DNA from: an uncultured Candidatus Rokubacteria bacterium
GTDB lineage: Bacteria > Methylomirabilota > Methylomirabilia > Rokubacteriales > DASRDR01
Reading direction: 5' to 3'
NCBI GenBank assembly: GCA_963708025.1
Contig: CAVPSB010000026.1
Location: 13,971-77,970 of the forward strand
Length of the DNA stretch: 64,000 nucleotides
In this document: positions 14,881 to 53,199 of the stretch, piece after piece
Layout: each line of letters opens with the position of its first letter
Position numbering within the stretch: the first letter of the stretch is position 1
Program-made: the position numbers and the translations under genes
The notes under the pieces: model-generated
What the model was told of the DNA's origin: nothing
Seen by the model: the letters and a program-made list of their open reading frames with translations, nothing else
The model's database searches: none

Positions 14881-14904
14881 GTGCGTCTCCTTCTCTGCGT
14901 GCAC

Positions 14905-23566: not shown

Positions 23567-23582
23567 TGGCACCAGTCTTGCT
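23567..23582 (+). promoter_or_regulatory. sigma54 (-24/-12) promoter upstream of lpxC
   Basis: TGGCAC-CAGTC-TTGCT, an exact consensus match, 36 nt before the ATG. Confidence 0.8.
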
Positions 23583-24636: not shown

Positions 24637-25224
24637 ATGCTCAGCCCGCGCTCGACGCCGAGAGCGCTGGCGGCCTCGTTGGTGCTTGTGCTCCTGCTCG
24701 CCGAGCTCGTGTGGGCCGGGCCCCTGCGGATCTCGAACCTGGTCGTCACGAACTCGGAGAGGACGATACTGGTCAACCTGGTGCTCCTGGGCTCGCTGCC
24801 CGAAGGCATCGTGGAGGGCCTGGGGACGGGCATCCCGGCGACGGTCCGCTATCAGGTCGAGTTGTGGCAGTACAACTCCTGGTGGTTCAACCGTCGCATC
24901 GCGGCGAAGATCTTGGAGCGGCAGGTAGTCTACGACGTGCTCACCAAGGAGTACCGGGTCTCGGCGGTGCAGGGAGAGGAGCGGGATCCCTACGTGACCC
25001 GTGACATCTGGGAGGCCGAGCGGGTCATCTCCGAGGTCCGGACCCTGCCGCTGGTTCCGATCGGGAGCCTCCGTGGCCAGGACCTCTATTACGTGCGGGC
25101 CCGGGCCGACCTGCGCTCGGGCGCCCCCGACTCGTCGTTCTCGAAGATCGTGCCGTTCTGGTCCTTCCGGGTCGAGACCGAGTGGGAGCAGTCGCCGTTG
25201 CTGACGATCAGCCGGGCGAGATAG
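24637..25224 (+). CDS. DUF4390-like periplasmic protein
   Basis: Signal peptide; G+P...Y.VEL, YD.LT.EY, YYVR; usual ntrY neighbour. Confidence 0.8.
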   Translation: MLSPRSTPRALAASLVLVLLLAELVWAGPLRISNLVVTNSERTILVNLVLLGSLPEGIVEGLGTGIPATVRYQVELWQYNSWWFNRRIAAKILERQVVYDVLTKEYRVSAVQGEERDPYVTRDIWEAERVISEVRTLPLVPIGSLRGQDLYYVRARADLRSGAPDSSFSKIVPFWSFRVETEWEQSPLLTISRAR

Positions 25225-25229
25225 CCGCA

Positions 25230-27530: not shown

Positions 27531-28912
<1,382 letters not shown>

Positions 28913-28913
<1 letters not shown>

Positions 28914-30544
28914 TGCGTGAGACGGTGTGGCCGGCGGCGCTCGGTCGCCGAGGGGTCGTCGCCTCGCCTCATCCGCTCGCCACGATGGCCGGGCTCCAGG
29001 CGATGCTGCGCGGCGGCACCGCGGTCGACGCCGCGGTGGCGGCCGGGGCGACGATCGCCGTCGTCTATCCCCACATGACGGGGCTCGGCGGCGACAGCTT
29101 CTGGCTCAGCTGGGACGCGCGCCGCCGCCGCTTGCGGGGGCTCGCCGCCTGTGGGGCGGCGGCCGCGCTCGCCACGCCCGAGCTCTACCGGGCCCACGGC
29201 CTGGAGGCGATCCCCACCCGCGGGCCGCTCGCCGCGATCACGGTCCCGGGCGCGGTGGACGGCCTGTGGGAGGCGCACGCCTGGAGCCGCGCCGAGCTGG
29301 GCTCGCCGCTGGGGTGGGGCGACCTGCTCGGGGACGCCATCCGCCACGCGGCCGAGGGCATCGCCGTCTCGCCGTGCCAGGCCCGTGTGACGGCGCGCGC
29401 CGCGGATTTGCTGGCCCGCTCGATGGAGCCGCCGTTCCGCGCGCTCGGGCAGACGTACCTCGTGGACGGGGCGGCCCCCGCCCCCGGCGCCCGCCTCGTC
29501 CAGCCGGATCTGGCCCGCACGCTCGAGCGCCTCGCCCGGGACGGCGGGCGCGCGTTCTACGAGGGCGAGCTGGCCGGCGCGCTCGGCCGGGCCTGCGAGG
29601 CGGCCGGGAGCCCGCTCCGCGCCGCCGACCTGGCGGCGCACCGATCGCGCTGGGTGACCCCGCTCACCGTGCCGTATCGCGGGGGCGTCGCCGCCTCGCT
29701 GCCGCCGCCGTGCCAGGGGATGGCCCTGCTGGCGATCCTCGGCATGCTGGACGCCGCCGACGTGGTCGGCTGCGGGTCGGACTCCGCCGACTACGTGCAC
29801 CTCGTCGTCGAGGCCACCAAGCTCGCGTTCGGCGACCGCGACCGCTGGCTCGCCGATCCCGAGGTGGTGGACGTCCCGGTGGCGCGCCTGCTCGATCCCG
29901 GCTACCTCCACGCGCGGGTCAAGCAGATCCGCGTCGACGCGGCCGCGCCGGCGCCGGTCCCATCGGGGCTCGGCGACACGATCGCCTGCGTCGCGGCCGA
30001 CGGGGCCGGCAACGCGGTCTCGCTGATCCAGAGCCTCTACCACGAGTGGGGCTCGGGCGTGGTCGCCGGGGAGACCGGCGTGGTCCTCCAGAACCGCGGG
30101 TCGTTCTTCAGCCTCGACCCCGCGCATCCCAACGGGCTGGCGCCGGGCAAGCGGCCGTTCCACACGCTGACCCCGTTCATGTGGCTCGCCGGCGAGCGGC
30201 CGGCCCTGGTCGCGGGGACCATGGGCGGCGAGGGGCAGCCCCAGACGCTGGCCGCGGTCACGACCCGCGTCCTCGACTTCGGCCTCGACGTCCAGGCCGC
30301 GGTCGAGGCGCCGCGCTGGGTCTACGGTCGGACATGGGGGACGCCGACGCGGGCGCTCTCCCTCGAGGGCCGCTTCGACGCCCGCGTCGCTGACACGCTC
30401 CGGGACCGCGGCCACGACGTGCGGGTCCTCGACCCCTGGAGCGACACGATGGGGCACGCGCAGGCCATCGCCTGGGACGGCGCCCGTGGCCTGTGGGTCG
30501 GCGGCGGCGATCCCCGGGCCGATGGTCCCGCGCTCGGCGCCTGA
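28913..30544 (+). CDS. Gamma-glutamyltransferase family (HpxW oxamate amidohydrolase-like)
   Basis: GLGGDSF, DT nucleophile (GDTIAC), KRPFHTL, GTMGGEGQPQ, DPRADG. Confidence 0.88.
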
Positions 30545-30672
30545 GGGCGTGTGTGAAGCAATCGGTTCCTCCGGCCCCCTCCGGTGGGTGGGGGAGGGGG
30601 CCAAAGGCCGAAGGCCGTCGCCAAAGGCCGGAGGCCGTCCGAAGGATCGGGTGGGAGGGAGGTCCCGAACTG
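30544..30672 (+). repeat. Repeat family A copy ending just before the allH start
   Basis: GTGTGAAGCAATCGG..GGCCGAAGGCC (duplicated)..GGAGGTCCCGAACTG then ATG. Confidence 0.75.
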
Positions 30673-31596
30673 ATGCGGACGCTCCAGGCGACGGTGGTCG
30701 GCGCCGAGGCGGCTCGGCGACTGGGCCGGGCCGCGGGGTCCGGTCGCGTCCACTCGACCTTCGCTCGGACCGTCAACGTGACGCTCGACGGGCTCGGGGA
30801 TGCCGGCTGGGTGAGCCTCCACGGTCCGGGGCCGCTCCCGGCACCCTTCGGGATCGCGTGCGTGGGACCGCTCGTCGGGCCCGCTCTGCCCGGAGCGCCG
30901 GTGCGGGTCGAGCCCGAGGGGCTGGTGGTGGACGGCGTTCTCCGCTGCCGGCTCGACGGCGCCGGCGTCTGCGACACCGGGCTGCCGGCGGCGGCGCCGC
31001 GTCCCGCGATTGCGGTCGGCCCGGGCGCGGCCGGCGACCGGGGCCTCGCGGCGGTGGCGACGGCGATCCTGGCCGGCGCGCCGCCCCCCACCGATCCGCT
31101 CGGTCGGCTCGCCGCTCCGGCCCTCGCCGCGCTCCACGCCGGCACCGCGCGCGGCGATGCGGCGGGCTCCCTGGCCGCTGCGACCGCGCTGCTCGGGCTC
31201 GGCCCCGGGCTGACGCCGTCGGGCGACGACTGCCTCGTGGGCTGGCTGGCCGGATTGTGGGTGGGCGGCGCGCAGGGCCGAGCGCTGCTGGCCGCGACCG
31301 CGCCGGCCCTGCTCGCCGCGGCGCGCGAGCGGACCGGCGACCTGGGCCGGGCGTTCCTCGTGGCCGCCGCCGCCGGCCAGGTGGCGGAGCCCGTCCGTGA
31401 CTTCGTGGTGACTCCGAGCCCGTCGCGCCTGGCGGGGCTCCTGGCCCTCGGCGCCACGTCGGGCGGCGATCTCCTCGCCGGCTACTGCCTCACACGCGCA
31501 GCGCTCGCTCGGGGGGTCCGGAACGAGTCCGGCTTCCGGTTCCCCCCTCCCCCCGGTGGGTGGGGGAGGGGGGTTAGGGGGGTGGGCGGGAGGTGA
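30673..31596 (+). CDS. allH: DUF2877 / YlbF (oxamate carbamoyltransferase subunit AllH-like)
   Basis: GRVHSTF, LLGLGPGLTPSGDD, GATSGGD. Confidence 0.85.
   Translation: MRTLQATVVGAEAARRLGRAAGSGRVHSTFARTVNVTLDGLGDAGWVSLHGPGPLPAPFGIACVGPLVGPALPGAPVRVEPEGLVVDGVLRCRLDGAGVCDTGLPAAAPRPAIAVGPGAAGDRGLAAVATAILAGAPPPTDPLGRLAAPALAALHAGTARGDAAGSLAAATALLGLGPGLTPSGDDCLVGWLAGLWVGGAQGRALLAATAPALLAAARERTGDLGRAFLVAAAAGQVAEPVRDFVVTPSPSRLAGLLALGATSGGDLLAGYCLTRAALARGVRNESGFRFPPPPGGWGRGVRGVGGR
31540..31595 (+). repeat. Repeat family A short copy overlapping the allH end and fdrA start
   Basis: CCCCCCTCCCCCC..GGGGGAGGGGGGTTAGGGGGGTGGGCGGGAGGTG. Confidence 0.75.
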
Positions 31597-33144
31597 TCGT
31601 AATCCGGGCCGTCGTGCGCCCATCCTTCTACCAGGACTCGGTCGCGCTCCTGCGTGTCGCCCAGGAGCTGCGCGGCCTCCCCGGCGTCCGGGAGGCGGCG
31701 GCGCTCATGGGGACCCCGGCCAATCACGCGCTGCTCGAAGCGGCCGGCCTCGGGACGCCCGACACGAAGCCCGCCGGTCCCGGCGACCTGATCCTGGCGA
31801 TCCAGGCGGAGAGCGATGCCGCGGCCGAGGCCGCTCTCGCCGCCGCGGATCGGCGCTTCGCGGCGCGGCGGCGGACGCTGGAGGCGGCCGTCCGCGTGCT
31901 GCCCCGCACGCTGGACTCGGCGTTGCGGCACCTCCCGGACGCGAGCCTCGCCGCCATCTCGGTGCCGGGCGCCTACGCCACCGCCGAGGCCCGCCGCGCG
32001 CTGAAGCAGGGGCTCCATGTCTTCCTCTTCAGCGACAACGTGCCGCTCGTCGACGAGGTCGCGCTCAAGCGCCTGGCGGTCGAGCGACGGCTCCTCTGCA
32101 TGGGGCCCGACTGCGGGACGGCCTACCTGGGCGGCGTCGGCCTTGGCTTCGCCAACGTGGTGCCCCGCGGCCGAATCGGCTGCGTGGCGGCTTCGGGGAC
32201 CGGGCTCCAGGCGGTGGCGTGCCACCTGGCCGCGCTCGGCGAGGGGCTCTCTCACGGCATCGGGGTCGGCGGGCGCGACCTCACGGCCGAGGTGGGCGGG
32301 CTCATGACGACCTTCGCCCTCGAGGCGCTCGCCCGCGACCCGGCGACGGCGCTGGTCGTGCTGATCTCCAAGCCGCCGGCCTCCGCGGTGCTGCCGGCCA
32401 TCGAGGCCGTGCTCGCGGGGCTCGGCAAGCCGGCGGTGGTCTGTGCCCTGGGCGCCCCGCCGCGGGAGGCCAAGTCCGTCCGCTGGGTGGCGACGCTGGA
32501 GGACGCGGCGGAGGCGGCCGTCGCCACGCTGCGAGGAGGCGCCTGGTTGCCGCGATCGTTCAGTGATCCGGCTGGGGTGCAGGCCCGGGTGGCCGGCGTC
32601 TCCGTCCGCGGCCCGGGGCTCCTCGGCCTCTACACCGGCGGCACGCTGGCCCACGAAGCGGCCCTCCTGCTCGAGCCGTTCCTCGAGCGGGGCGCCTGGC
32701 GCATCGTTCGACCTCGGCGCCGACGAGTTCACGGTCGGGCGCCCCCATCCGATGCTCGATCCCGAGGCGCGGGCCGCGCGCGTCCGTGAGGCCAGTGGCG
32801 ATCTGGCCCTCGGCGTGCTCCTGGTGGACCTGGTCCTCGGTCGCGCTGCCCATCCCGACCCGGCCGGCCCCCTGGCCGCCGCGATCCGCGACGCCCGCAC
32901 CGCGGCCGCCGCCGGGCGCGGGCTGACCGTCGTCGGCTCGGTCGTCGGGACCGAGGGCGATCCCCAGGGGCTCCGCGGCCAGGTCGCCGTGCTCGAGGCC
33001 GCCGGCTGCATCGTGTTGCCGTCGAACGCCCAGGCCGCGCGCTTCGCCACACTCTGTCTCAGGCCCGACCTCGCGCCGTCACTGCTGGGGGCGCTGGCAA
33101 TCCCGCGGCCGGAGGGCCCGCGCCGCGACGAGGTGATCCGGTGA
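31593..33144 (+). CDS. fdrA: FdrA (AllF) CoA-ligase-fold protein; +1 frameshift at ~32707
   Basis: YQDSV, MGTPAN, FLFSDNV, MGPDCGT, ASGTG, GGRD, GLYTGGTL. Removing one T in ATCGTTCGAC restores IVDLGADEFTVGRPHPM. Confidence 0.88.
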
Positions 33145-34109
33145 CCCGCCGGGCGCTCCTCCGCGCGATCGCGCTGGCGTGGCTCGGAATCCCCCGGCCG
33201 GTCGGCGCGCAGGCGCGGGGGAACGTGGCCCGGGTGGGGTTCCTCTCGGACGGCGTCGGGCGAAGCGCCGAAGAGGGGCTCCGGCAGGGCCTCCGGGAGC
33301 TGGGGTACGTCGAGGGCCGAGACATCGTCATCGAGTATCGCGACGCGGAGGAGCGACCCGACCGGCTGCCGCAGCTCGTGAGCGAGCTGCTCCGACTCCC
33401 GGTGGACGTGATGCTGACCCTCGGCGGAGCGGCGACGCGGCTCGCCAAGGAGGCCACCGCGACCGTGCCCATCGTCGCCTCGTCCGGGGTGCTCGCCGAG
33501 CTGGTGACGAGCCTCACTCGCCCGGGCGGGAACGTGACCGGCATCACCCTGCCCCAGGGGCCCGCCGAGATGGGCAAGAAGTGGCTCGAGATCCTCAAGG
33601 CGGCGGCACCGGCGGTCTCGAACGTCGGAGTCCTCTACGCGCCGAGCCGAATGACGCCAGTCGACTGGGAGGCGTACACCGCGATCGCGGAGGCCCTGGA
33701 CCTCCGCATCCGGCGATTCTCGGCGGGGCGCCCGGAGGAGCTCGATGGCGTATTCGGCGCGATGCGGCGAGCGGGCGTCGATGCGGTGGTCATGTGGCCG
33801 GGGGGCGTGACCGTCTCGCATCGCGCCCGCGCCGCCCAGCTCGCCCTCGCGCACGGGCTGCCGGCGATCCACGAGCAGCGCTCGTTCGTGACGGCCGGGG
33901 GACTCGTCGCGTACGGGGTCAACATCGTCGAGGTCGGTCGGCGCCTCGCCTACTACGTTGACCGGGTCCTCAAGGGTGCCCGGCCCGGGGACCTGCCCGT
34001 CGAGCAGCCGACCAAGTTCGACCTGGCCATCAACCTGAAGACCGCCAGGTCGCTCGGGGTGACCGTGCCGCCATCGCTGCTGCAACGGGCCGACGAGATC
34101 ATCCAGTGA
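33141..34109 (+). CDS. ABC transporter substrate-binding protein (ABC_sub_bind)
   Basis: GLRELGYVEG, SLTRPGGNVTG, DLPVEQPTKF, RADEIIQ. Confidence 0.92.
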   Translation: MTRRALLRAIALAWLGIPRPVGAQARGNVARVGFLSDGVGRSAEEGLRQGLRELGYVEGRDIVIEYRDAEERPDRLPQLVSELLRLPVDVMLTLGGAATRLAKEATATVPIVASSGVLAELVTSLTRPGGNVTGITLPQGPAEMGKKWLEILKAAAPAVSNVGVLYAPSRMTPVDWEAYTAIAEALDLRIRRFSAGRPEELDGVFGAMRRAGVDAVVMWPGGVTVSHRARAAQLALAHGLPAIHEQRSFVTAGGLVAYGVNIVEVGRRLAYYVDRVLKGARPGDLPVEQPTKFDLAINLKTARSLGVTVPPSLLQRADEIIQ

Positions 34110-34279
34110 CGGTGGACGATCTGCTGGCGGGGTCCCCGCGCGTGATCAACCTGGGACTCGAGGTCTTCGCCCTCGAGCTCCACGCCGCCGGCGTGCCGGT
34201 GGTCCACGTGGACTGGCGCCCGCCGGCGGGCGGCGATCTCCGATTGGCGGCGTTGCTCGCGCAGCTCGATGACGATTAG
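34106..34279 (+). CDS. 57-aa stand-alone FdrA C-terminal domain protein (missing from the ORF track)
   Basis: GTGA overlap; MTVDDLLAGSPRVINLGLEVFALELHAAGVPVVHVDWRPPAGGDLRLAALLAQLDDD, with the VIN.GL..F and W.PPAGG hallmarks. Confidence 0.85.
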   Translation: MTVDDLLAGSPRVINLGLEVFALELHAAGVPVVHVDWRPPAGGDLRLAALLAQLDDD

Positions 34280-34353
34280 ATCTGGAGGGACTCGATGACC
34301 CGTGCGCTCGGCTCCGTGACCGCTGTCCAGCCCACGGCTGATCGAGGAACCTG

Positions 34354-35601
34354 GTGAGCGTGGGAGCGGACGGGGACCTCCTGCCCAGCCCGCGCATTCT
34401 GCTGGGCCCCGGGCCGAGCATGGCGGATCCCCGGGTTCTGCGGGCGCTGGCGACGCCGCTGGTGGGCCAGTTCGATCCCGAGTTCACCGCCGTCATGAAC
34501 GAGGTGATGGCAATGTCCCGCCTCGCCTTCCAGACGGAGAATGCCCGGACCTTCCCGGTCTCGGGGACGGGGCGAGCGGGGCTGGAGGCGGCGCTCGTCT
34601 CGCTGGTCGAGCCGGGGGACCGCGTGGTGGTCGCGGAGTGCGGCCGCTTCGGCCTCCTCTTCCAGGAGATCGCGGAGCGCTGCGGCGCCGAGGTCGTCCC
34701 GGTGCGGGCCGAGTGGGGCCGCGTCGTCGAGCCGGACGCCGTCGCCCGGGCGCTCGCCGGCGGCCGGACCAGGCTCGTGGCCGTCGTGCACGGGGAGACG
34801 TCGACGGGCGTGCTCCAGCCGCTCCCCGAGCTGGCCCGGCTGGCCCGGGCCCACGAGGCCCTCCTGGTCGTTGACGCGGTCGTCACGCTCGGCGGCGTGG
34901 AGGTGGCGACGGATGCCTGGGGGCTCGACGTGGTCGTGGCCGGCACCCAGAAGTGCCTGAGCTGCCCGTCGGGACTGGCGCCGCTCACGTACAACACCCG
35001 GGCAGAGTCGGTGCTCGCCCGCCGCGGCGGGAAGGTGCGCTCGAACTACCTGGACCTGGGCCAGCTCGCCGACTACTGGAGCCCGGGGCGTTTCAATCAC
35101 CACACGGCGCCGACCGCCATGGTCTACGGGCTGCGCGAGGCGCTGCGGGCCGTGAAGGTCGAGGGCCCGGCGGCCCGCTTCGCGCGCCACCGGCTCCACG
35201 GCGACGCGCTGAGGGCCGGGATCGCCGCGCTCGGGCTCGATCTCTTCGGGTCGGAGCCGCCGGCGCATCGACTCCCGATGCTGACCCCGATCGTCGTGCC
35301 GTCGGGCGTGGACGAGCTGCGGGTCCGTCAGCGGCTGCTCCAGGACTTCGCGATCGAGATCGGCGCGGCGTTCGGACCGCTTCAGGGGAAGATCTGGCGG
35401 ATCGGGACCATGGGCTACTCGGCCCGGCGGCCGAACGTCCTCCTGGCCCTGGTGGCGTTCGAGGCCGTGCTGCGCCAGGAGGGCTGGAAGGCCGCGCCGG
35501 GCGCCGGCGTCGAGGCCGCGCTCGCCCACTACCGGGTGGCCGGCGAGGCCGAGGTCGAAGTGGCGGAGAGCCTGGGGGCGGGCGGCATTGGCCGGTACTG
35601 A
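34354..35601 (+). CDS. pucG: Class V aminotransferase, PucG/HpxJ (ureidoglycine-glyoxylate aminotransferase)-like
   Basis: LLGPGP, GQFDP, HGETSTG, GTQKCL, SNYLDL, NHHT, FGPL.GKIWRIGTMG. Confidence 0.82.
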   Translation: MSVGADGDLLPSPRILLGPGPSMADPRVLRALATPLVGQFDPEFTAVMNEVMAMSRLAFQTENARTFPVSGTGRAGLEAALVSLVEPGDRVVVAECGRFGLLFQEIAERCGAEVVPVRAEWGRVVEPDAVARALAGGRTRLVAVVHGETSTGVLQPLPELARLARAHEALLVVDAVVTLGGVEVATDAWGLDVVVAGTQKCLSCPSGLAPLTYNTRAESVLARRGGKVRSNYLDLGQLADYWSPGRFNHHTAPTAMVYGLREALRAVKVEGPAARFARHRLHGDALRAGIAALGLDLFGSEPPAHRLPMLTPIVVPSGVDELRVRQRLLQDFAIEIGAAFGPLQGKIWRIGTMGYSARRPNVLLALVAFEAVLRQEGWKAAPGAGVEAALAHYRVAGEAEVEVAESLGAGGIGRY

Positions 35602-35607
35602 GAACTT

Positions 35608-35692
35608 CGGGGTCTCGGAAGACCCCCCGACCCCCCCTTCGAGGCCGCGGCCGGAGCCGCGGCTCGAGGCGGAACGCCAGCGGCCGTGTGGC
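35608..35692 (+). repeat. Intergenic repeat family B, copy 1
   Basis: GGGGTCTCGGAAGACCCC and GCCGCGG..CCGCGGC hairpins; matches 40367-40454. Confidence 0.8.
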
Positions 35693-35796
35693 GAGGCGGA
35701 GGGCGAGGAGCCGGCGGGCCGCGAGTCGCCGGGAGGATCGACGCGCTCCGAGCGTCCGGGCGTCAAGGCTGCGAACGCCGGGAGGACCGAGCCACG

Positions 35797-37044
35797 GTGA
35801 GCGTCAAGGCCGCGAACGCCGAAGCCCTCCGCCGCCTCGTCGAGGCCGACCCGGTGCTGGTGGACTGCGCGCCGGCCGGCGAGGTCCTCGGACTCGAGCC
35901 GCGCACCGTCCTCCACGCCGGCCCGCCCATCGGCTGGGCGGCCATGTGCCCGCCCCTCCAGGGCGCCATCGTCGGCGCGCTCCGCTACGAGGGCTGGGCC
36001 GACGGCGAGGAGAAGGCCCTCCGGCTCGCCGCCGGGGGTGAGGTCCGCTTCGAGCCGTGTCACCACCGGGGCGCGGTGGGACCGATGACCGGGCTCGTCA
36101 CCCGCTCGATGCCGGTCTTCGTCGTGGAGAACCGGGCCTTCGGCAACCGCGGGTGCGCCACCATCAACGAGGGGCTCGGCCGGGTCCTCCGCTTCGGTGC
36201 CAGCGACGACGCCGTCCTCGCCCGGCTCGGCTGGCTGCGCGACGAGGCCGGCCCCCTCCTGGGCCGGGCGCTTCGCCGGGCCGGCGGCATCGCGCTCCGG
36301 CCGTTGATGGCCCAGGCCCTCCTCATGGGGGACGAGCTGCACCAGCGGAACGTCGCCGCGTCCTCCCTCTTCCTGCGCGCGCTCCTGCCGGCGCTCGTCC
36401 GCGAGGCGAGCGGCCCGGCGCTCGGGCGACTGGCCGACTTCGTGGCCGGGAACGACCAGTTCTTCCTGAACCTCGCCATGGCCGCGGCCAAGGCGGCCGC
36501 CGATCCCATCGTCGGCGTGCCCGGCGCCACCATCGTGAGCGCAATGGCGCGGAACGGCACCGAGTTCGGGATTCGCGTGGCCGGCTGCGGCGCCCGCTGG
36601 TTCACCGCCCCTGTCAACACGCCGGAGGGGCTCTTCTTCCCGGGCTTCGGCCCGGAGGACGCGAACCCGGACCTGGGCGATTCCGCGATCGTGGAGACCG
36701 TCGGGCTCGGCGGGATGGCGATGGCGGCCTCGCCGGCCGTCGTCCGGTTCGTCGGGGCCGGCGGGCTCGCCGATGCCCTCCGCGTCACCGAGGAGATGCG
36801 GGAGATCACGCTCGGCGAGCACCCCCACTGGCGGATCGCGACCCAGGACGACCGCGGCGCGCCCGTCGGGATCGACGTCCGGCGTGTGGTCGCGACGGGG
36901 ATCACGCCGCTCATCAACACCGGCATCGCCGGGCGGCGGCCGGGGACGGGGCAGGTCGGTGCCGGGGTCGTCCGCGCCCCGCTCGGCTGCTTCACCGCCG
37001 CGCTGGCCGCCCTGGCTGGGGAGCCGGCCCGGCCGGAGCCATGA
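35797..37044 (+). CDS. allG: DUF1116 / YlbE (AllG-like)
   Basis: LHAGPP, AVGPM.G, NEGLG, MGDELH.RN, MARNG, DLGDSAI.E, INTGIA..GQVGAG. Confidence 0.9.
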   Translation: MSVKAANAEALRRLVEADPVLVDCAPAGEVLGLEPRTVLHAGPPIGWAAMCPPLQGAIVGALRYEGWADGEEKALRLAAGGEVRFEPCHHRGAVGPMTGLVTRSMPVFVVENRAFGNRGCATINEGLGRVLRFGASDDAVLARLGWLRDEAGPLLGRALRRAGGIALRPLMAQALLMGDELHQRNVAASSLFLRALLPALVREASGPALGRLADFVAGNDQFFLNLAMAAAKAAADPIVGVPGATIVSAMARNGTEFGIRVAGCGARWFTAPVNTPEGLFFPGFGPEDANPDLGDSAIVETVGLGGMAMAASPAVVRFVGAGGLADALRVTEEMREITLGEHPHWRIATQDDRGAPVGIDVRRVVATGITPLINTGIAGRRPGTGQVGAGVVRAPLGCFTAALAALAGEPARPEP

Positions 37045-37096
37045 GGTCGGGGATGCCCGCGTCGCTTTCCGGGCGCGCCGGCGGCGGAGGTCTGAT

Positions 37097-37165
37097 CCAC
37101 CCCTCCCCCCGCCACAGGCCGAAGGCCGTCCGAACAGTGGGGAGGGGCCGGGGGTGGGGGGAGTT
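37097..37165 (+). repeat. Repeat family A copy before carbamate kinase
   Basis: CCCCTCCCC..AGGCCGAAGGCCGTCC..GGGGAGGGG. Confidence 0.7.
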
Positions 37166-37168
37166 TCG

Positions 37169-38128
37169 ATGAATCCCCCGCCCCGCGATCCCCGGCTCCT
37201 CGTGGTCGCCATCGGCGGCAACGCCCTCCGCGAGCCGGGCGGGGTGGCGAAGCCCGACGAGTGGTTCCGGGCGCTGGGGCGGAGCCTGCCACCGCTCGTC
37301 GAGCTGGTCGCGGCCGGGTACCGGCTCGTGCTGACCCACGGCAACGGGCCGCAGGTGGGCGACGAGCTGCTCCGGATGGAGCTGGCGCAGAAGATGGTGC
37401 CGCCGCTCTCGCTCGACCTCTGCGGGGCCGAGACCCAGGGCTCCCTCGGCTACGCCATCCAGCAGGTCTTCGGCAACCTCTGCCGGGCCCGGAAGCTCGA
37501 GGTCCCGGCGGCCACCGTCGTGACCCGCGTCGTCGTCGACGCGGCCGACCCGGCGTTCCAGCGCCCGACCAAGCCGATCGGCCCCTTCTACTCGGCGGCG
37601 AAGGCAAAGCAGCTCCACCGCCAGAAGGGCTGGACCCTGGTCGAGGACGCGGGGCGCGGCTACCGGCGCGTGGTGCCGTCGCCGCGCCCGCTGCGGGTCC
37701 TCGAGGCCGAGCTGGTGCGGCGGCTCTCGATGGCCGGGGCGGTGCCGATCGCGTGCGGGGGCGGCGGGGTGCCGGTGGTCGACACCGAGGCCGGCTACCG
37801 GGGCGTGGAGGCGGTCATCGAAAAGGACCTGGCCACCGAGACGCTCGCCACCGGCCTCGCCGCCGAGCGGCTGCTGATCCTGACCGGGGTCCCCCGGGTC
37901 GCGGTGAACTTCGGCTCGCCGCAGGAGCTCGCCGTCGAGCGGCTCACGGTGGCCGAGGCCCGCCAGCTCCTGGCCGCCGGCGAGTTCCCGCCGGGCTCGA
38001 TGGGTCCCAAGGTCGAGGCGGGAGTGCGGTTCGTGGAGGCCGGCGGGCGCGAGGCCATCATCACCTCGCTCGACCGCGTCCGGGCCGCCATCGACGGCGA
38101 CGCCGGCACCCGCGTCGTCGCCGCCTGA
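37169..38128 (+). CDS. arcC: Carbamate kinase
   Basis: AIGGNAL, THGNGPQVG, PTKPIG, YRRVVPSP, GSMGPK. Confidence 0.95.
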   Translation: MNPPPRDPRLLVVAIGGNALREPGGVAKPDEWFRALGRSLPPLVELVAAGYRLVLTHGNGPQVGDELLRMELAQKMVPPLSLDLCGAETQGSLGYAIQQVFGNLCRARKLEVPAATVVTRVVVDAADPAFQRPTKPIGPFYSAAKAKQLHRQKGWTLVEDAGRGYRRVVPSPRPLRVLEAELVRRLSMAGAVPIACGGGGVPVVDTEAGYRGVEAVIEKDLATETLATGLAAERLLILTGVPRVAVNFGSPQELAVERLTVAEARQLLAAGEFPPGSMGPKVEAGVRFVEAGGREAIITSLDRVRAAIDGDAGTRVVAA

Positions 38129-38282
38129 ATGCGCCAAAGAATCGCGATTCTCGCCCCCTTTTCCCGGCGGGTGGGGGACGGCAGGGTCCGGCTTGGGAGC
38201 GAGGGCCCGCTCGCCGTCGATCGGGCCGGCCGCGCTCCAGTGCGTCGAGCGCGCGGCACGGGGCGTCGTGGGGGACGGCAGG

Positions 38283-38372
38283 GTGCGGCCTGTGGAGGCC
38301 GGGGGCCGCGAGGCCATCATCACCTCGTTGGACCGCGTCCAGGCCGCCATCGACGGCGGCGGCACCCGCGTC
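38283..38372 (+). repeat. Diverged duplicate of the arcC 3' end (38024-38116)
   Basis: Direct alignment; encodes VRPVEAGGREAIITSLDRVQAAIDGGGTRV. Confidence 0.85.
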
Positions 38373-38434
38373 CCTGACTAGGCACAGAGTCGAATCCGGC
38401 ACCCGCGTCCCTGACTAGGCACAGAGTCGAATCC
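38361..38434 (+). repeat. Perfect 37-bp tandem duplication
   Basis: GGCACCCGCGTCCCTGACTAGGCACAGAGTCGAATCC x2. Confidence 0.95.
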
Positions 38435-38492
38435 GGCCCCCCCTCCCCCAGTGGGTGGGGGAGGGGGGTTGGGGGGGGGAGGCGGGAGGTGA
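38435..38492 (+). repeat. Repeat family A short copy
   Basis: Near-identical to 31540-31595. Confidence 0.75.
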
Positions 38493-38542
38493 TAATTGAT
38501 TCGGGCGGGCGAGTGCGGTAGGAAGGGGGGCACGAGGGCGCG

Positions 38543-39259
38543 ATGAAGATCCTGGTGATCAATCCGAACAGCTCGGAGACGGTGACGGGCGCGATCATGG
38601 AGTCGGCCCGCCGGGCGGCGTCGCCGGGGACGGAGCTGGCCGGCGTCACCACCAAGGGCGGCACCCGCAACATCGACTCGGCGTTCGGCGACTACCTCTC
38701 GGGCGCCTACATGATCCGGACCTGCCTGGACGCGGTCCCGGTCCACCGGCCGGACGCGGTGGTGCTGGCCGGCTTCGGGCGCGTCGGGATCGACGCGCTC
38801 AAGGAAGCGCTCGAGGTCCCGGTGGTCTCCATCTCGGAGGCCTCCATGGCCGTGGCGTGCCTGCTCGGCCACCGGTTCACGACGCTCACCATGCTCGAGC
38901 AGTTCATCCCGTACCAGCAGGACCTGGTCCGCCTCTACGGCTTCGAGGCCAAGTGCGCCTCCGTGCGCGCCATCGACGTCAACGTGGAGGAGTGCGTGAC
39001 GAACCGCGCGGAGACCCTCCGCCAGCTCCGGGCGCGGATCCAGCAGGTGGTGACCGAGGACCGGGCCGAGGTGGTCATCCTGGCCTGCGCCGGCCTCTGC
39101 GGCTACGACGCCGAGCTGTCCCGGCTGGCCGGGGTCCCGGTGCTCGACCCGGTCGCCGTCGGCGTGAAGGTCGCCGAGAGCCTGGTCGGCCTGGGCCTCC
39201 GCCAGTCGAAGATCCGCAAGTTCGCCCACCCGCCGCAGGACCTCGACGCCTACCTCTGA
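38543..39259 (+). CDS. Asp/Glu/hydantoin racemase family protein
   Basis: MKILVINPNSS, VILACAG, GVPVLDPV; first catalytic Cys position reads AGFG. Confidence 0.88.
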   Translation: MKILVINPNSSETVTGAIMESARRAASPGTELAGVTTKGGTRNIDSAFGDYLSGAYMIRTCLDAVPVHRPDAVVLAGFGRVGIDALKEALEVPVVSISEASMAVACLLGHRFTTLTMLEQFIPYQQDLVRLYGFEAKCASVRAIDVNVEECVTNRAETLRQLRARIQQVVTEDRAEVVILACAGLCGYDAELSRLAGVPVLDPVAVGVKVAESLVGLGLRQSKIRKFAHPPQDLDAYL

Positions 39260-39265
39260 GACGTC

Positions 39266-40360
39266 ATGACGAGCAGTCTGCTGGCGCGACTCCGCGAGCT
39301 GACGGCGCTGCCCGGACCCTCGGGTCATGAGCGAGAGGTCGCCCTCGCCTTCGCCAAGCACCTCCGGGCCTACACCGACGACGTCGTGCTCGACCCGTTC
39401 GGCAACGTGATCGGGACGATCCGGGGCGACGCGGCCAAGGGCGCCGTGATGCTGTCGGCTCACACCGACGAGGTCGGCCTCGTCGTCAAGCACGTCGAGC
39501 CCGACGGCACGCTGCGGGTCGACCTCAACGGCTGGATCGACGCCCGGGTGGTGCTCGCGGCCCAGGTCGAGGTGTGGACCCGGAGCGGCCCGGTGGCCGG
39601 CGTGGTCGGGACGCGCTCGGCCCACCTCACGACGCCGGAGGACGCCCGGCGGCCGGTGGAGGCGTGGGACCTGTGGGTCCAGGTCGGGGCCGAGACGGCG
39701 GCCGAGGCGGGCGCGCTCGGCGTCCGGATCGGCGATCTCGTCACCTACCGGGCGAACTTCCAGGAGCTGGCCGGGGGTTACGTCGCCTCGAAGGCCCTCG
39801 ACAACCGCGCCGGCCTCAGCGTGCTGCTGGAGGCGCTCGACCGGCTGCCGGCGCGGCGGGACTACGACCTCTACGTGGTGGGCGCGGCCCAGGAGGAGGT
39901 GGGCTCCCGCGGCGCGCGGGTGGCGGCCCAGACGCTGCGCCCCCAGATCGCGCTCTGCGTGGACACCGTGGCCGGCGCCGAGCCGGGGACGCCGCTCAGC
40001 CGCGCCACCGAGGCGAGCGGTGGTGGCCCCATCATCCGCGCCTGGGAGTGGATGGCCGGGAGCCTCATGGGGACGGCCTACCACCGGGGGCTCTTCCGCC
40101 GCCTGCAGGATGTCGCCGAGGCCGCCGGCATCCCGCACCAGCTCGACGTGGCCCGGACCTTCACGGACGCCTGCGGCACGAGCGGGAGCGGGCACGGCGT
40201 CCCGACCGGCGGGATCTACATGGCCCGCCGCTGCGCCCACTCGCCGTGCGAGGTTGCCAAGCTCACCGACTTCGAGGGGGCGGCCCGGCTGCTCGCGGCG
40301 TTCCTGGGCGTTTTGACCGGCCGCGAAGTGCAGGAGCTGGGGTCTTCGACGCGGGTCTGA
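39266..40360 (+). CDS. M42 family metallopeptidase/amidohydrolase
   Basis: AHTDE, KALDNR, QEEVG, VD and HSP metal ligands. Confidence 0.9.
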   Translation: MTSSLLARLRELTALPGPSGHEREVALAFAKHLRAYTDDVVLDPFGNVIGTIRGDAAKGAVMLSAHTDEVGLVVKHVEPDGTLRVDLNGWIDARVVLAAQVEVWTRSGPVAGVVGTRSAHLTTPEDARRPVEAWDLWVQVGAETAAEAGALGVRIGDLVTYRANFQELAGGYVASKALDNRAGLSVLLEALDRLPARRDYDLYVVGAAQEEVGSRGARVAAQTLRPQIALCVDTVAGAEPGTPLSRATEASGGGPIIRAWEWMAGSLMGTAYHRGLFRRLQDVAEAAGIPHQLDVARTFTDACGTSGSGHGVPTGGIYMARRCAHSPCEVAKLTDFEGAARLLAAFLGVLTGREVQELGSSTRV

Positions 40361-40366
40361 GATTCT

Positions 40367-40454
40367 CGGGGGGGTCTCGGAAGACCCCCCCGATGCCCCC
40401 CTCGGAAGCCGCGGCGAAGCCGCGGCTCGAAGTGGAACGCCGGGGCCGCGTGGC
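40367..40454 (+). repeat. Intergenic repeat family B, copy 2
   Basis: GGGGGGGTCTCGGAAGACCCCCCC..GCCGCGGCGAAGCCGCGGC. Confidence 0.8.
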
Positions 40455-40503
40455 CAGAGCCAGAGGGTTGCGAGAAGCCGACGGGCGGTGGGAATCGAAG
40501 CCG

Positions 40504-40620
40504 GAGAGCACGGGAAGGAATGAGGTGCTCCGGCTCCCCCCTCCCCCCCGGCCACAGGCCGAAGGCCGTCCAACGGTGGGGGAGGGGGGCTGGGGGGGTG
40601 GGCGGGAGGTCCCGATCTGA
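40504..40620 (+). repeat. Repeat family A copy
   Basis: GAGAGC..GCTCCGGCTCCCCCCTCCCCC..GGCCGAAGGCC..GGGGCTGGGGGGGTGGGCGGGAGGTCCCGA. Confidence 0.8.
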
Positions 40621-40634
40621 GCGGGCATCGCGCG

Positions 40635-43264
40635 ATGTCCGAGCTGATCCTGCGGGGCGCGCGGCTGACGGACTGCGCCGAGCCCCGCGACGTCGCGATC
40701 GCCGCAGGCCGGATCGCGGCGGTCGCGCCGACCTCGAGGGCCGCGCACCGCGCTGAGCTGGCTCCTGGACGGGCGGCTCCTGCTCCCGGGCTTCGTCGAC
40801 GGCCACGTGGCGCTCGGCTTCGGCGGCGGGCTCGACCGGCTCGCTGCCGACGCGCGGGCGTGGCTGGACGCGGCGATCCGCCACGGGACCACGGCCCTGC
40901 GGCTCGCGCTGCCGGTGGCGCCCGCGAGCGGCTTCGAGCCGCTGCAGATGCTCGCCCGCCTCCGCGCCGAGTACGCCGATCGCGTGACCGTGCAGGTCGC
41001 CGCGTGGCCGGACCTGGCCGCCGTCGGGACGGACGGTGCGTGGCTCCGGGACGCGCGCGAGGCCGGCGCCGACGCGCTCGGCGCCGCGGTCCGGCGGGAC
41101 GACCTCGACGCTCCCGGCCTCGCCGCGCTGCTCCGGATCGGCCGCGACGTGGACGCACCCCTCGACCTCGCCGTGGACGCGGCGCTGCCCCCCGGGCGCA
41201 TCGGGCTCGATGCGCTGGCGCTGCCCGGCCTCCTCGCCCGCCTGGACGCCGCCGGCCTCGCGCGGCGCGTGCGGGTGCTTCACGCGACCGCGATCGCCGC
41301 GGTCCACCGGGACGAGCTGGCGCCGCTCCTCGCCGGGCTGGCCGACCGGGGGATCGCCGTCGTCGTCTGCCCCTCCGCCGCGCTGCGGGCCGGCGGCCGC
41401 GCCGATCCCGTGGCCGCGCGCCGGGGCGTGCCGCGTCTCCGCGAGCTGCTGGCGGCCGGCGTCGACGTGGTCCTGGGCTCGGGCGGCCCCGCGCCCGGCG
41501 GCTCGCCGCTCGGCTCGGCCGACCTCCTCCAGGCGGCCTGGCTCGCGGCGTACGCGGCGCACCTCGGCGTGCCGCGGGCGCTCGAGCGCGCCCGCGCGAT
41601 GGTCACGGACGCGGCGGCGCGCTCGCTCGGCCTGGCGGCGGGGTACGGGCTGGCGCCCGGCTGCCGGGCGGACCTCGTCGTCCTCGACGCGCCCTCGTTC
41701 GCCCGCGCCGTCGTCGATCACGCCGAGAAGCGCCACGTGCTGAAGGCGGGGCGGGCAGTCCATGGCACCGTGCGCGTCAGCGAGGTCATCGCGCTGGCCG
41801 CCCCGCCCGGCGGGCTGACCATCCGCCAGGCGGCGCTTCCCGGCCGACCCGGGCGCCACGACGTGCTCGTCGCCGCCGGCGTCATCCGGGCGATCGTGCC
41901 CCACGCCGTCGAGGCGGTGGGGGAGGAGATCCCGGCCGCCGGGCGGCTCGTCGTCCCGGCCTTCGTCGAGGCCCACCTCCACGTCGACAAGGCGTTCGTC
42001 ATGGACGGCCTCCGCCTCGGCGAGGCGAACCTGACCGTGGCCGAGGCCGTGGCGGCGATGCGGGGGGCCAAGGCCGACTACACGCGGGAGAGCCTGCTGG
42101 CCCGCGGCGGGCTGGTCCTCGAGCGCGCGCTCCGACACGGGGTCACCGCGCTCCGCGCCCAGTGCGACGTGGACCCGCTGATCGGGCTCCTGGCCCTGGA
42201 GGCGCTGGTCGAGCTGCGGCGCGAGTGGGCCGACCGCGTGGATCTCCAGATCGTGGCCTTCCCCCAGGAGGGCCTGGTCGGGGATCCCGCGGCGGTGCGC
42301 GCTGATGCGCGAGGCGTTGAGGAAGGGGGCCGACGTCGCCGGCGGCGGCCCGCTCGATCCCGACTACCGGGCCCACGTCGCCCAGGTCTTCGCGCTCGCG
42401 CGCGAGGCGGGGGCCGCCGTCGACATCCACGCCGACCTCGCGATCGACGGGCTCCGGCCGCCGGCCGAGTGGGAGGCGACGCTCATCGCCGAGATGACGC
42501 GGGCGGCCGGCCTCCAGGGTCGCGTGGCCATCGGCCACTTCGCCGCCGCCGGGGCGGTGCCGTGGGAGGCGGTGGCGCCGGTGGCCCGCAAGCTCGCGGA
42601 GGCCGGCGTGTCGGTGGCGGCGCTCCCGGCGAGCGAGCTCTACCGCCAGGGGCTCGCCGATCCGGTCAACAGCCGGCGCGGGATGACGCGGATCCGCGAG
42701 CTGCTCGCCGCCGGCCTCAACGTCGTGATCGCCTCGAACAACGTCCGCGACGCCTTCGTGACCTTAGGCAACGCGGATCTGCTCGAGCAGGCGCTGCTCG
42801 CCGCCCACGCCGCCTTTCTCGACACCGAGGCCGAGCTGACGACCGTCCTCGAGATGGTCACCACGCGGCCGGCCCGCCTCCTGGGGCTCCACCACCGGAG
42901 CGAGGTGGCGGTCGGCCAGCAGGCCGACCTCGTCGTGCTCGACGCCGCCTCGCCGGCGGAGGCGATCGCCCGCCAGGCCGAGAAGCTCTACGTCATCCGC
43001 CGGGGCCGGGTCGCCGCCCGCAACCCGTGGTGCGACATGACGGCCCGTGCCGTGAACTTCCACCGATTCGCGGAACGTCAGAATACCTGGTTCGTCGTTT
43101 GCGTCGTCCTGGCGACGATCATCGTCCTGCACGCCTTCCACTACGACTACAGCGACGCGTACGTGCACTCGGCAGCTCGACGAACATCCGGCGATCTTGG
43201 TGGAAGGGGGAAAGCCGAGATGGGTGGTGAGGGCCAGGCGGAGCCGGCCGTCCCCGCCTGCTGA
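40635..43264 (+). CDS. Tandem two-domain cytosine-deaminase-like amidohydrolase with frameshifts at ~40750 and ~42300
   Basis: MSELILRGARL; LDGRLLLPGFVDGH; second domain PAFVEAHLHVDK, QIVAFPQEG, DIHAD, ADLVVLDA. Family-like sequence ends near 43025. Confidence 0.78.
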
Positions 43265-43297
43265 TATACCCGGACGGCGCCTCACGCTTGGAGGCCG

Positions 43298-43607
43298 TAC
43301 GAGGACGACGGCGGACGAACGCCTCCCTTCGGGGTCACCACGGGCTGACGGCCTTCGAGTGTGCGCCCGACCCCACGGGGGTCACGGTGCGGATCGGCGA
43401 GCCGGTGAGCGACCGGTCGGCGGTGCCGGCCGGCTGCCGCCACCGGATCCGGCTTCGGACCGACCCGCCAGCGGCCCTGATCCTCCACGGCCACGGTCTG
43501 CCGCCGCGGCTGGGGGCTCCAGCGCGAAGAAGCCGGGCTGGTGGGCGGATGGCCCGGGCTTCCCCCGCCAGCCGTGCGCCACGCTCACCGTGCGGCGCGC
43601 GGTCTGA
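43298..43607 (+). pseudogene. Decayed C-terminal fragment of a GH31-like glycoside hydrolase
   Basis: YEDDG followed across frameshifts by RTNA..GHHGLT.FEC..GVTVRIGEP and PGWWADG. Confidence 0.45.
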
Positions 43608-49528: not shown

Positions 49529-49701
49529 GACCCGGCCTCGAAGGTGACCGCCGGCTCCAGGGTCTTCACGGCGCGGGTGTCCATCGCCTGGACGGGCGCC
49601 AGCGCGTTTTCCAGCAGCACGCGGACCATCTCGAGCCGGTTCTCGGCGATCTCGATCCCGGCCGCCTTCATCCGCGCGCGCACCTCGTCGATCGTCAGCA
49701 T
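49525..49701 (-). CDS. 58-aa GatC/AtzG-like amidase partner subunit
   Basis: AGGAGG RBS; MLTIDEVRARMKAAGIEI..EPAVTF; ATGA coupling to the amidase. Confidence 0.72.
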   Translation of the reverse strand: MLTIDEVRARMKAAGIEIAENRLEMVRVLLENALAPVQAMDTRAVKTLEPAVTFEAGS

Positions 49702-49715
49702 CGGTGGTCCTCCTG

Positions 49716-49866
49716 TTTGGAACCTCCCGCCCACCCCCCCAGCCCCCCTCCCGTCTGACGGGATCGCCGGGACGGCTCGGGCCTGCGGCCCTCGCGACGT
49801 CCCGTCCCTCCGGTGGGCACCGGGGGGAGGGGGGAGCCGGAGAACCCATTCATTCACACGCTCTCG
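49716..49866 (-). repeat. Repeat family A, long copy
   Basis: Reverse complement nearly identical to 15775-15921. Confidence 0.85.
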
Positions 49867-53024: not shown

Positions 53025-53199
53025 GATCTCGTTGCTCCTCGAGCGCGGGCGGCCTCCGACCGGCCGGGGCGCCGTTTCCACCACATCGTGCCAGGGAATG
53101 ATACTAGACCAATCACCTGCGCGCTGCTAGCGCGCGGTACAGTCTCCTCGGGCTCGGCGGTTGACGGTGATCCGACTAATGCTACAACATGAGGGCGGT

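Follow-up and report, generated by a model that had tools for sequence, protein, structure and literature searches.

A predicted ureide catabolic gene cluster in a Rokubacteria genome combines PucG-like, AllFGH and HpxW-like genes

A co-oriented gene cluster at positions 28913–43264 (+) of a 64,000 nucleotide (nt) stretch of DNA from an uncultured Candidatus Rokubacteria bacterium (assembly GCA_963708025.1, contig CAVPSB010000026.1; the whole stretch is hereafter the window) probably represents a nitrogen- and energy-yielding gene set for allantoin-derived ureides in this Rokubacteria/Methylomirabilota-type soil bacterium. The cluster holds genes for a PucG/HpxJ-like aminotransferase, for AllF, AllG and AllH, for a catabolic carbamate kinase, and for an HpxW-like N-terminal nucleophile (Ntn) hydrolase. 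It likely merges route steps that have until now been known from different model bacteria, and would then be a new variant of known pathways. The source genome, 8.17 Mb in 49 contigs, is 99.67% complete with 8.18% contamination. Because the window is ~72% G+C, coding frames were chosen by third-position GC; they were named with Pfam and NCBIfam models. Below, G000 denotes the source genome and other G numbers the genomes of relatives, while L numbers are loci, C numbers are contigs of G000, and X numbers are Logan runs.

In the proposed route, the aminotransferase would first convert (S)-ureidoglycine and glyoxylate to oxalurate and glycine. AllF, AllG and AllH would then act together on oxalurate and inorganic phosphate (Pi) to give oxamate and carbamoyl phosphate, with a 57 amino acid (aa) peptide contributing a module found fused to AllF or to AllG in other lineages. 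Carbamate kinase would use the carbamoyl phosphate and ADP to yield ATP, NH3 and CO2, and the HpxW-like hydrolase would cleave oxamate to oxalate and NH3. The racemase encoded downstream probably provides the correct allantoin enantiomer, an orphan binding protein probably takes up a ureide, and the upstream steps are most likely encoded elsewhere, by the PuuE allantoinase gene on C13 and the AllC-family M20 hydrolase genes on C17 and C15. The substrates and reactions named here are all predictions, drawn from gene content and order, family membership and conserved context. The core of this route (PucG, AllFGH with carbamate kinase, and an HpxW-type hydrolase) had been put forward in a first-pass annotation of the window, and it is supported by homology, by controls with paralogues, and by context, including the PuuE neighborhoods, the relative G001, and the proteobacterial loci L083 and L096.

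The class-V aminotransferase (34354–35601, +), a candidate (S)-ureidoglycine–glyoxylate aminotransferase, is closer to PucG and HpxJ than to other glyoxylate/serine aminotransferases. Among PDB structures it matches Bacillus subtilis PucG (3ISL) at 406.8 bits and Klebsiella HpxJ (3NNK) at 388.5 bits, with the next protein at 299.6 bits; its nearest paralogue in the genome scores 210 and 196.5 bits on PucG and HpxJ, respectively. Orthologues 74–86% identical occur in 8 of 40 relatives, where their neighbors are PuuE, xanthine dehydrogenase (XDH) subunits, an HpxA-type racemase, an ATZ/TRZ-type amidohydrolase, or AllG/ArcC. The PuuE beside the aminotransferase of L112 scores 506 bits against a cut-off of 424.6. 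A metagenome set of 80 loci with orthologues 72–84% identical gives a similar set of neighbors: PuuE in 43, an XDH subunit in 14, and a racemase in 13, all of which are lower bounds because many of the contigs are short.

The genes for AllF, AllG and AllH, the set expected of an oxamate carbamoyltransferase, are all encoded in the locus. The allH gene (30673–31596, +; DUF2877 subunit, PF11392 67.9 bits) lies in a frame open from 30493, its ATG at 30673 being the likely start, and its product is 58% identical to the AllH of L018 over 30658–31515. The allF (fdrA) gene (31593–33144, +), which codes for a succinyl-CoA-synthetase-alpha-like subunit, matches the FdrA model PRK06091 in two parts across a frame break (324.1 bits over profile positions 2–354 and 108.1 bits over 376–495); the intact L018 orthologue passes the same model (441.8 versus a cut-off of 433). 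The allG gene (35797–37044, +; DUF1116 subunit, PF06545 291.7 bits), in a frame open from 35686, codes for a protein without its usual N-terminal head. It is followed after 124 nt by the carbamate kinase gene arcC/allK (37169–38128, +), which scores above the equivalog cut-off of the catabolic carbamate kinase model TIGR00746 (360.4 versus 358.25 bits). AllFGH of the cluster is thus predicted, from this gene set, to interconvert oxalurate plus Pi and oxamate plus carbamoyl phosphate. Other AllG loci are also found. The genome has four in total, in differing contexts, and the copies on C6 and C12 stand without FdrA. The locus at C14:308161–312029 (L010) has a paralogous FdrA-AllG-ArcC set, with AllG frame-broken, followed by an isochorismatase-family hydrolase gene, a context reported for biuret/triuret genes in nitrifiers. 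Three Rokubacteria loci (L021, L028, L064) carry ntrX-ggt, an ATP-dependent DNA ligase gene on the opposite strand, and then AllG-ArcC. Neither FdrA nor AllH is encoded within 10 kb, so that AllG may work without them or with copies encoded elsewhere.

The first gene of the cluster (28913–30544, +; PF01019 442.6 bits) codes for an Ntn hydrolase of the gamma-glutamyltransferase (GGT) fold and is a candidate oxamate amidohydrolase. It matches 2NLZ at 297.3 bits, the two chains A and B of 5HFT at 218.5 and 182.1 bits, and Escherichia coli GGT at 120 and 56 bits; 5HFT is identified as HpxW in a passage of PMC12360370. The nucleophile Thr of a ‘GDT’ motif is kept, and it aligns with the equivalent Thr of 2NLZ, just before residue 6 of the HpxW small chain. 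With the nearest GGT paralogue of the genome, the HpxW large chain ranks 17th at 149 bits and ordinary GGTs score higher. The protein is a candidate member of the HpxW group. The Asp/Glu/hydantoin-family racemase (38543–39259, +; PF01177 149.9 bits) moderately resembles allantoin racemases, matching 5LFD at 163.3 bits and HpxA (3QVJ) at 116.3 bits, and its orthologues (82–88% identity) come after AllG, ArcC and a short-chain dehydrogenase/reductase (SDR) in Rokubacteria loci. The orphan ABC-type substrate-binding protein (SBP) gene (33141–34109, +; PF04392 141.8 bits) is linked on both sides by GTGA overlaps that suggest translational coupling.

Comparisons of gene neighborhoods provide evidence that the arrangement is more than chance. 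Among the best 80 of 449 AllG relatives in a species-representative genome collection, nearly all come from ‘Candidatus Rokuibacteriota/Methylomirabilota’ metagenome-assembled genomes (MAGs), and the closest is 84% identical. Around these 80 AllG-anchored loci, with a neighbor defined as a tblastn match of at least 80 bits, FdrA is found in 53, NtrX in 37, a CodA-like amidohydrolase in 34, ArcC in 20, a racemase in 10 (9 of them with ArcC), AllH in 9, GGT in 8, and the aminotransferase in 3; the M42 peptidase encoded in the window and the SBP are found in none. The merged layout is present in three of 41 related genomes, counting the source genome itself. The other two, G001 and G006, belong to two other genera of the same family and share the arrangement of FdrA and the 57-aa peptide, followed at some distance by aminotransferase-AllG-ArcC. 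The order in G001 is ntrY-ntrX-ggt-allF-mini-puuE-aminotransferase-allG-arcC (“mini” being the 57-aa open reading frame, ORF), with a PuuE 85% identical to the L112 copy that passes its cut-off, and in G006 it is allF-mini-puuE, a transporter and an ATZ/TRZ amidohydrolase gene, then aminotransferase-allG-arcC and a PuuE-like gene. Beyond the phylum, the Granulosicoccaceae MAG loci L083 and L096 carry a racemase gene and then, in order, an M20 gene, ArcC, an aminotransferase 49–50% identical to that of the window, AllG and AllF. Family models annotate the M20 protein of L083 as an allantoate amidohydrolase (NF006775, 561.7 versus 479) and place AllH after AllF. A Rhodospirillales locus (L089) reads AllG-AllF-aminotransferase, with a GGT gene 7 kb away. 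The neighborhood comparison proposed with the first-pass annotation thus finds the aminotransferase together with AllG and AllF in G001 and G006 and, independently, in the three proteobacterial loci. In addition, public soil contigs bridge FdrA to SBP (X5) and the racemase to the M42 gene.

Sequence identities suggest how these arrangements arose. The window aminotransferase is 72–86% identical to PuuE-linked Rokubacteria copies and ~49% identical to proteobacterial ones. For AllG, the window copy shares 84% identity with one from Rokubacteria that has no aminotransferase beside it, and 58–62% with the proteobacterial copies. These patterns indicate that the aminotransferase was brought beside AllFGH more than once, and such repeated joining is good evidence of functional coupling. 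As a separate observation, five relatives have an ATZ/TRZ or 8-oxoguanine-deaminase-like amidohydrolase gene beside their aminotransferase or AllFGH genes (L111 12985–14361; L110 11988–13721; L112 6373–8238; L113 10643–12406; L018 5556–7100). It is a candidate purine or ureide step in those relatives; the source genome has no close orthologue (≤38% identity).

The 57-codon ORF (34106–34276, or 34279 with its stop codon, +) between the SBP and aminotransferase genes had been described as a ‘miniFdrA’, and this is borne out by its product, which matches positions 507–554 of the 555-position E. coli-type FdrA model (PRK06091, E 5e-12). The spacer between the SBP and aminotransferase genes occurs only once in the genome, and its translation looks like protein. 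Full-length FdrA orthologues lack this last part of the profile, those of L018 and L083 stopping at positions 498 and 494, and for that reason match nothing after SBP by tblastn. Only two copies of the module are present in the source genome, and none lies within the window allG ORF. Across 84 loci, tblastn with the peptide gives 73 matches, of which 47 are fused in frame to the AllG N-terminus and none to FdrA. The remaining 26 are separate: 15 lie between FdrA and AllG, 3 are adjacent to AllG only, 5 are adjacent to FdrA only, and 3 have neither as a neighbor. In 13 loci this search matches AllG but not the peptide. The ~50-residue module is therefore found as the AllF tail in E. coli, as the AllG head in most lineages here, or as a stand-alone ORF, and it stands alone wherever genes are inserted between fdrA and allG (the window, G001, G006, G224 and L024).

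Candidate genes for the upstream steps are found outside the cluster. As had been noted at first pass, no allantoinase or AllC gene is visible in the window, and searches of the window with the AllB, PuuE and AllC models give no match. Elsewhere in the genome, the PuuE on C13 scores 493.5–495.5 bits against a cut-off of 424.6, an M20 protein on C17 exceeds the cut-offs of two ‘allantoate amidohydrolase’ subfamilies (482.4 versus 452 and 457.8 versus 399), and a second M20 protein on C15 falls just below one (396.5 versus 399). A bypass of AllD, proposed at the outset, holds for the locus, which has no AllD-type gene, although four genes of the AllD family (Ldh_2) are present elsewhere in the genome. 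A second ureide-like neighborhood at C28:67957–86408 carries a PuuE-like gene (52% identical), an ATZ/TRZ-like amidohydrolase gene, a ureidoglycolate-lyase match, and a racemase paralogue. A search for allantoicase gives no match in the genome and none in its control genomes, so it carries no weight.

A number of results weigh against the proposed route. First, the merged layout is rare: the aminotransferase is near AllG or FdrA in 3 of 80 AllG-anchored loci, and AllG, FdrA, ArcC, GGT, M42 and the CodA-like amidohydrolase are each found in none of the 80 aminotransferase-anchored metagenome loci. Second, the family assignments are not uniformly sharp. The aminotransferase is not named by any NCBIfam model and matches other transaminases best, far below their cut-offs; the HpxW-like protein narrowly exceeds the cut-off of the general gamma-glutamyltransferase equivalog as well (359.9 versus 357.85); and the racemase is only moderately like characterized allantoin racemases (163 and 116 bits), while G021 has a different paralogue, of the HpxA type (279 bits to HpxA), next to aminotransferase-PuuE. 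Third, the four AllG loci in different contexts make substrate diversity of the enzyme family likely. Fourth, no 2-oxo-4-hydroxy-4-carboxy-5-ureidoimidazoline (OHCU) decarboxylase match is found in the genome, with a working control, so that allantoin is probably taken up from outside. Finally, the cluster may not form a single operon, given gaps filled by repetitive extragenic palindromic (REP)-like repeats and no recognizable promoters or terminators.

The spacing of the genes bears on this last point. The eleven items listed at first pass are all present on the + strand in the order given, as judged with Pfam and NCBIfam models, although the end assigned to the cluster, 43030, falls 234 nt short of the amidohydrolase stop codon at 43264. 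Upstream, the window carries lpxC, a DUF4390 gene, an ntrY-like histidine kinase gene (25182–27512, +) and an ntrX-like sigma-54 activator gene (27531–28913, +), the last two named with Pfam and forming a conserved anchor upstream of the cluster. The description of the genes as mostly tightly spaced fits the first half, where the ntrX stop overlaps the ggt start as TGATG and GTGA overlaps join allH to fdrA, fdrA to SBP, and SBP to the 57-aa ORF; these overlaps indicate translational coupling. It does not fit the three spacers that are filled by REP-like repeats, between ggt and allH (30545–30660, palindromic), between arcC and the racemase gene (38129–38542), and between the M42 and amidohydrolase genes (40361–40634), which have 258, 266 and 647 blastn matches in the genome, respectively. 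The cluster therefore probably comprises several transcription units. The element is a G/C-rich palindrome of the CCCCCTCCCCC...GGGGGAGGGGGG type, and public contigs are very deep with loose ends where it occurs; in the gap before the amidohydrolase gene, Logan contigs show high depth and loose ends at 40366 and 40401. By blastn, the arcC–racemase spacer further contains an 87%-identical duplicate of the arcC 3’ end (38283–38372, corresponding to 38024–38116) and a direct repeat of ~37 nt at about 38360–38440, and has the appearance of a rearrangement scar; relatives carry an SDR gene at this position. Motif scans do not inform on operon structure. A sigma-54 consensus scan of the window (TGGCAC-N5-TTGCW, at most 2 mismatches) gives 12 matches versus 14.2 expected and none in the cluster spacers, a sigma-70 promoter scan gives none, and a terminator scan gives one terminator-like site, inside ggt, versus 2.5 expected. 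One perfect sigma-54 -24/-12 consensus (TGGCAC-N5-TTGCT) lies at 23567–23582, 37 nt upstream of the lpxC start, with the window-wide count at chance.

The last two genes of the cluster invite other readings. An M42-family metallopeptidase gene (39266–40360, +; PF05343 241 bits) starts 6 nt after the racemase gene, and is followed by a fused two-domain amidohydrolase gene of ~875 codons (40635–43264, +; NCBIfam). The latter had been called a tandem amidohydrolase; two separate genes are rejected, as both domains lie in one open frame of 799 codons in L076 and 833 codons in L139, with which the window is collinear. Its N-domain has lost the HxH metal motif in each of the three copies (‘NAHA’, ‘NARL’ and, in the window, ‘DGHVA’), and its C-domain retains ‘DAHLHVD’ and matches the cytosine deaminase CodA (4R7W) at 170 bits and AtzC at 142 bits. 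The PDB matches of the M42 protein are generic M42 aminopeptidases. A search of 250 other genomes of the phylum gives a single clear M42 orthologue, in G224 (72%); the next match is in G088 (45%). The G224 order is lpxC-DUF4390-ntrY-ntrX-M42-fdrA-mini-fused amidohydrolase-ABC transporter-allG, without aminotransferase, ArcC, GGT or racemase, so the M42 and fused amidohydrolase genes appear tied to FdrA/AllG independently of the PucG route. L076 and L090 likewise carry the fused amidohydrolase, and L095 carries its C-domain. These two genes are, on this comparative evidence, recurrent companions of FdrA/AllG in the phylum that are not needed to close the pathway. It is possible, if improbable, that they go further and encode new, dedicated AllF/AllG partners in Rokubacteria that make or trim a carbamoylated substrate. 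One could be a ureide amidohydrolase outside the M20 family and the other an enzyme that gives oxalurate by deamination or ring opening, with the 57-aa peptide as a free-standing fourth subunit tethering AllF to AllG.

A somewhat less probable alternative is that the locus is a mosaic without a common pathway, namely a REP-shuffled nitrogen-catabolic island after ntrYX in which the substrate of FdrA/AllG/AllH is a different carbamoylated compound and rearrangement, rather than partnership, has placed the aminotransferase, GGT, racemase, M42 and amidohydrolase genes beside them. Gene content after ntrX does vary widely among relatives, the module junctions coincide with REP-like repeats and the duplicated arcC end, and GGT follows ntrX even in L021, L028 and L064, without FdrA and AllH. 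One of the four AllG loci has an isochorismatase-type hydrolase gene, and allFGHK is described near biuret/triuret genes in nitrifier MAGs (in part of PMC12625717). However, the start/stop overlaps join ntrX to ggt and allH through fdrA and SBP to the 57-aa ORF, the aminotransferase, along with PuuE or AllC, entered AllFGH clusters separately in Rokubacteria and in Proteobacteria, and the aminotransferase and GGT are specifically PucG-like and HpxW-like relative to their paralogues. The balance favors the ureide route.

It is more doubtful still, and not supported here, that the cluster covers the whole allantoin path, with the M42 protein as a non-M20 allantoate/ureide amidohydrolase and the double amidohydrolase as the ring opener, along the lines of the non-canonical upstream steps suggested at first. 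M42 and M20 belong to one metallopeptidase clan, and the M42 gene holds, 6 nt after the racemase gene, the position that an AllC-type M20 gene next to the racemase has in L083. No allantoinase or AllC model scores above its cut-off on the contig of the window, and the M42 and amidohydrolase genes recur with FdrA/AllG in G224 and, for the amidohydrolase, in L076, L090 and, as C-domain, L095. Against this, PuuE above cut-off and an AllC-subfamily M20 are encoded elsewhere in the genome, and the G224 locus that pairs M42 with the amidohydrolase has no aminotransferase, ArcC, GGT or racemase gene. Neither protein has the affinities expected: the M42 protein scores 26.9 bits on PF01546 with no AllC or carbamoylase model listed, and the fused amidohydrolase is neither AllB- nor PuuE-like, giving 19.9–22.4 bits on the allantoinase model TIGR03178, a best NCBIfam match that is cytosine-deaminase-like and below cut-offs, and a catalytic domain that groups with the mononuclear CodA/AtzC deaminases. 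Presence and absence likewise give no support for replacement of AllC by M42, since M20 AllC-family genes are present in G224, G001 and G006 with or without M42; none is found in G088 (94% complete). At E ≤ 1e-60, none of the 40 relatives has an M42 homologue, not even G001 and G006 with their shared core operon.

The cluster contains three frame breaks, one in fdrA (32685–32706) and two in the amidohydrolase gene (~40763–40771 and ~42263–42301), all of which shift the frame by +1. The products on either side of each break are collinear with intact orthologues (for fdrA, the proteins of L018, L111 and L041), and codon-position GC is coding-like on both sides. Of 61 paralogue loci elsewhere in the genome, 14 have similar breaks between collinear high-scoring segment pairs, a figure nearer 10 of 61 once SBP cases that are tandem genes are set aside, and another AllG locus is also frame-split. 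Logan contigs from four runs of four studies (X1, X5, X6, X20) were compared over 28800–43400. One base is absent at 32707 in contigs of X1, X5 and X6, while X20, with a depth of 3.3 there, has no such contig, and one base is absent at 42301 in contigs of all four runs. At least two of the three breaks are thus absent from related populations, and the genes of close relatives are intact at these places. The bases absent from related contigs, together with breaks throughout the genome, make assembly insertions the most likely cause, and the breaks across the genome, with the +1 shift of all three in the cluster, suggest systematic single-base insertions in the assembly. Two points count on the other side: the third break (~40763–40771) is not among the indels in the contigs listed, and the Logan contigs, 90–99% alike, derive from related populations and maybe not from the source strain. 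A decaying, non-functional cluster in which the frameshifts are real and fdrA and the amidohydrolase gene are pseudogenes is very unlikely, as the three breaks within 11 genes and the one that the contigs listed do not resolve are set against an extra base absent in contigs of three and four of the four runs, the same type of break in the 14 paralogue loci, including the other AllG, and coding-like GC around every break.

The proposed route has counterparts in known systems. One is the E. coli oxamate branch (allD, allFGH = fdrA/ylbE/ylbF, allK = ybcF), in which AllF, AllG and AllH occur together with a carbamate kinase, and oxalurate plus Pi presumably yields oxamate, carbamoyl phosphate and then ATP. 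AllFGH was shown in 2024 to be the oxamic transcarbamylase of E. coli, in a text that also describes K. pneumoniae as being without allFGH/allK genes (passages of PMC11326118). Unlike E. coli, in which AllD supplies the oxalurate, the window locus has no AllD-type (Ldh_2) dehydrogenase gene and has a PucG-type aminotransferase gene between allF and allG. Its gene order is allH-allF...allG, that of E. coli being allF-allG-allH. The ~50 aa that end AllF in E. coli are encoded in the window by the separate 57-aa ORF, and form the AllG head in most relatives. The window also encodes a candidate oxamate hydrolase, whereas oxamate is a dead end in E. coli (part of PMC3364942).

Similar to the Klebsiella hpx system (HpxJ, HpxY, HpxW, HpxA), the cluster has an HpxJ-like aminotransferase, an HpxW-like Ntn hydrolase, and a racemase of the same family. 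The fate of PucG-type oxalurate has reportedly been worked out in Klebsiella, via a hydrolytic enzyme. In the window, however, oxalurate is predicted to be split phosphorolytically by AllFGH, with ATP formed via ArcC, and not by an amidase-type HpxY, and the racemase is nearer the Pseudomonas type (5LFD) than HpxA. HpxY itself is an ‘oxalurate amidohydrolase’ in the text and an ‘oxamate carbamoyltransferase’ in the legend to Fig. 7 of one source (parts of PMC12625717). The B. subtilis puc system (PucH, PucF, PucG) supplies, in PucG, the best solved relative of the aminotransferase (407 bits). It has an AllB-type allantoinase and the M20 protein PucF in one regulon (part of PMC13751858), whereas in G000 a PuuE-type allantoinase is encoded on another contig and the aminotransferase gene is embedded in the AllFGH cluster. 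AllFGH with carbamate kinase is also described in soil nitrifier MAGs, as allFGHK beside biuret/triuret genes and in connection with scavenging of organic nitrogen (parts of PMC12625717), and the C14 locus of G000 is paralogous; the window copy has PucG-, HpxW- and racemase-type genes as its partners instead of a biuret hydrolase gene. The mixing of modules from separately described pathways, as claimed at first pass, is thus apparent in the PucG, AllFGH/ArcC, HpxW-like and racemase-type genes of this one cluster. The chemistry from ureidoglycine aminotransferase through oxalurate, a transcarbamylase and oxamate to HpxW was sketched in a 2016 essay (part of PMC5270733). Among openly accessible full texts no paper was found on pucG/hpxJ clustered with allFGH, and the subscription literature may bear on the claim.

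The window, the PuuE-containing clusters of G001 and G006, and the proteobacterial AllC-ArcC-PucG-AllGFH arrangement provide genomic evidence for an aminotransferase route coupled to an ATP-yielding phosphorolytic route. An added oxamate hydrolase would remove the dead-end product of E. coli, the only species for which AllFGH has reportedly been tied to oxamic transcarbamylase. The analysis names candidate proteins for these steps in an uncultured, abundant soil phylum, and the ~50-residue module that moves between AllF, AllG and a stand-alone ORF bears on structural work on AllFGH; a crystal structure of E. coli FdrA is available (3DMY, cited in PMC11326118). The CodA-like amidohydrolase, a frequent (34 of 80 loci) and unexplained neighbor of AllG, is a new recurrent partner.

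Further genes of the window lie outside the cluster. An SDR gene at 53161–53940, followed by a zinc-dependent alcohol dehydrogenase gene, a cyclase gene and a GLUCM-like gene, is 81% identical to the SDR found between arcC and the racemase in L018, L041 and L076, and lies here 10 kb downstream. NCBIfam gives only generic SDR names, so that a role as an AllD-like step in relatives remains speculation. The window is rich in amide-handling genes, with an amidase-signature protein (48143–49849, -; AtzE/GatA-like, below cut-offs) of the same broad family as HpxY, a phosphotriesterase-family protein (50733–51932, -), and a formamidase (13774–14904, -). Near the end of the window are an integrase N-terminal fragment (59997–60536) and a DDE transposase gene (62618–63994).

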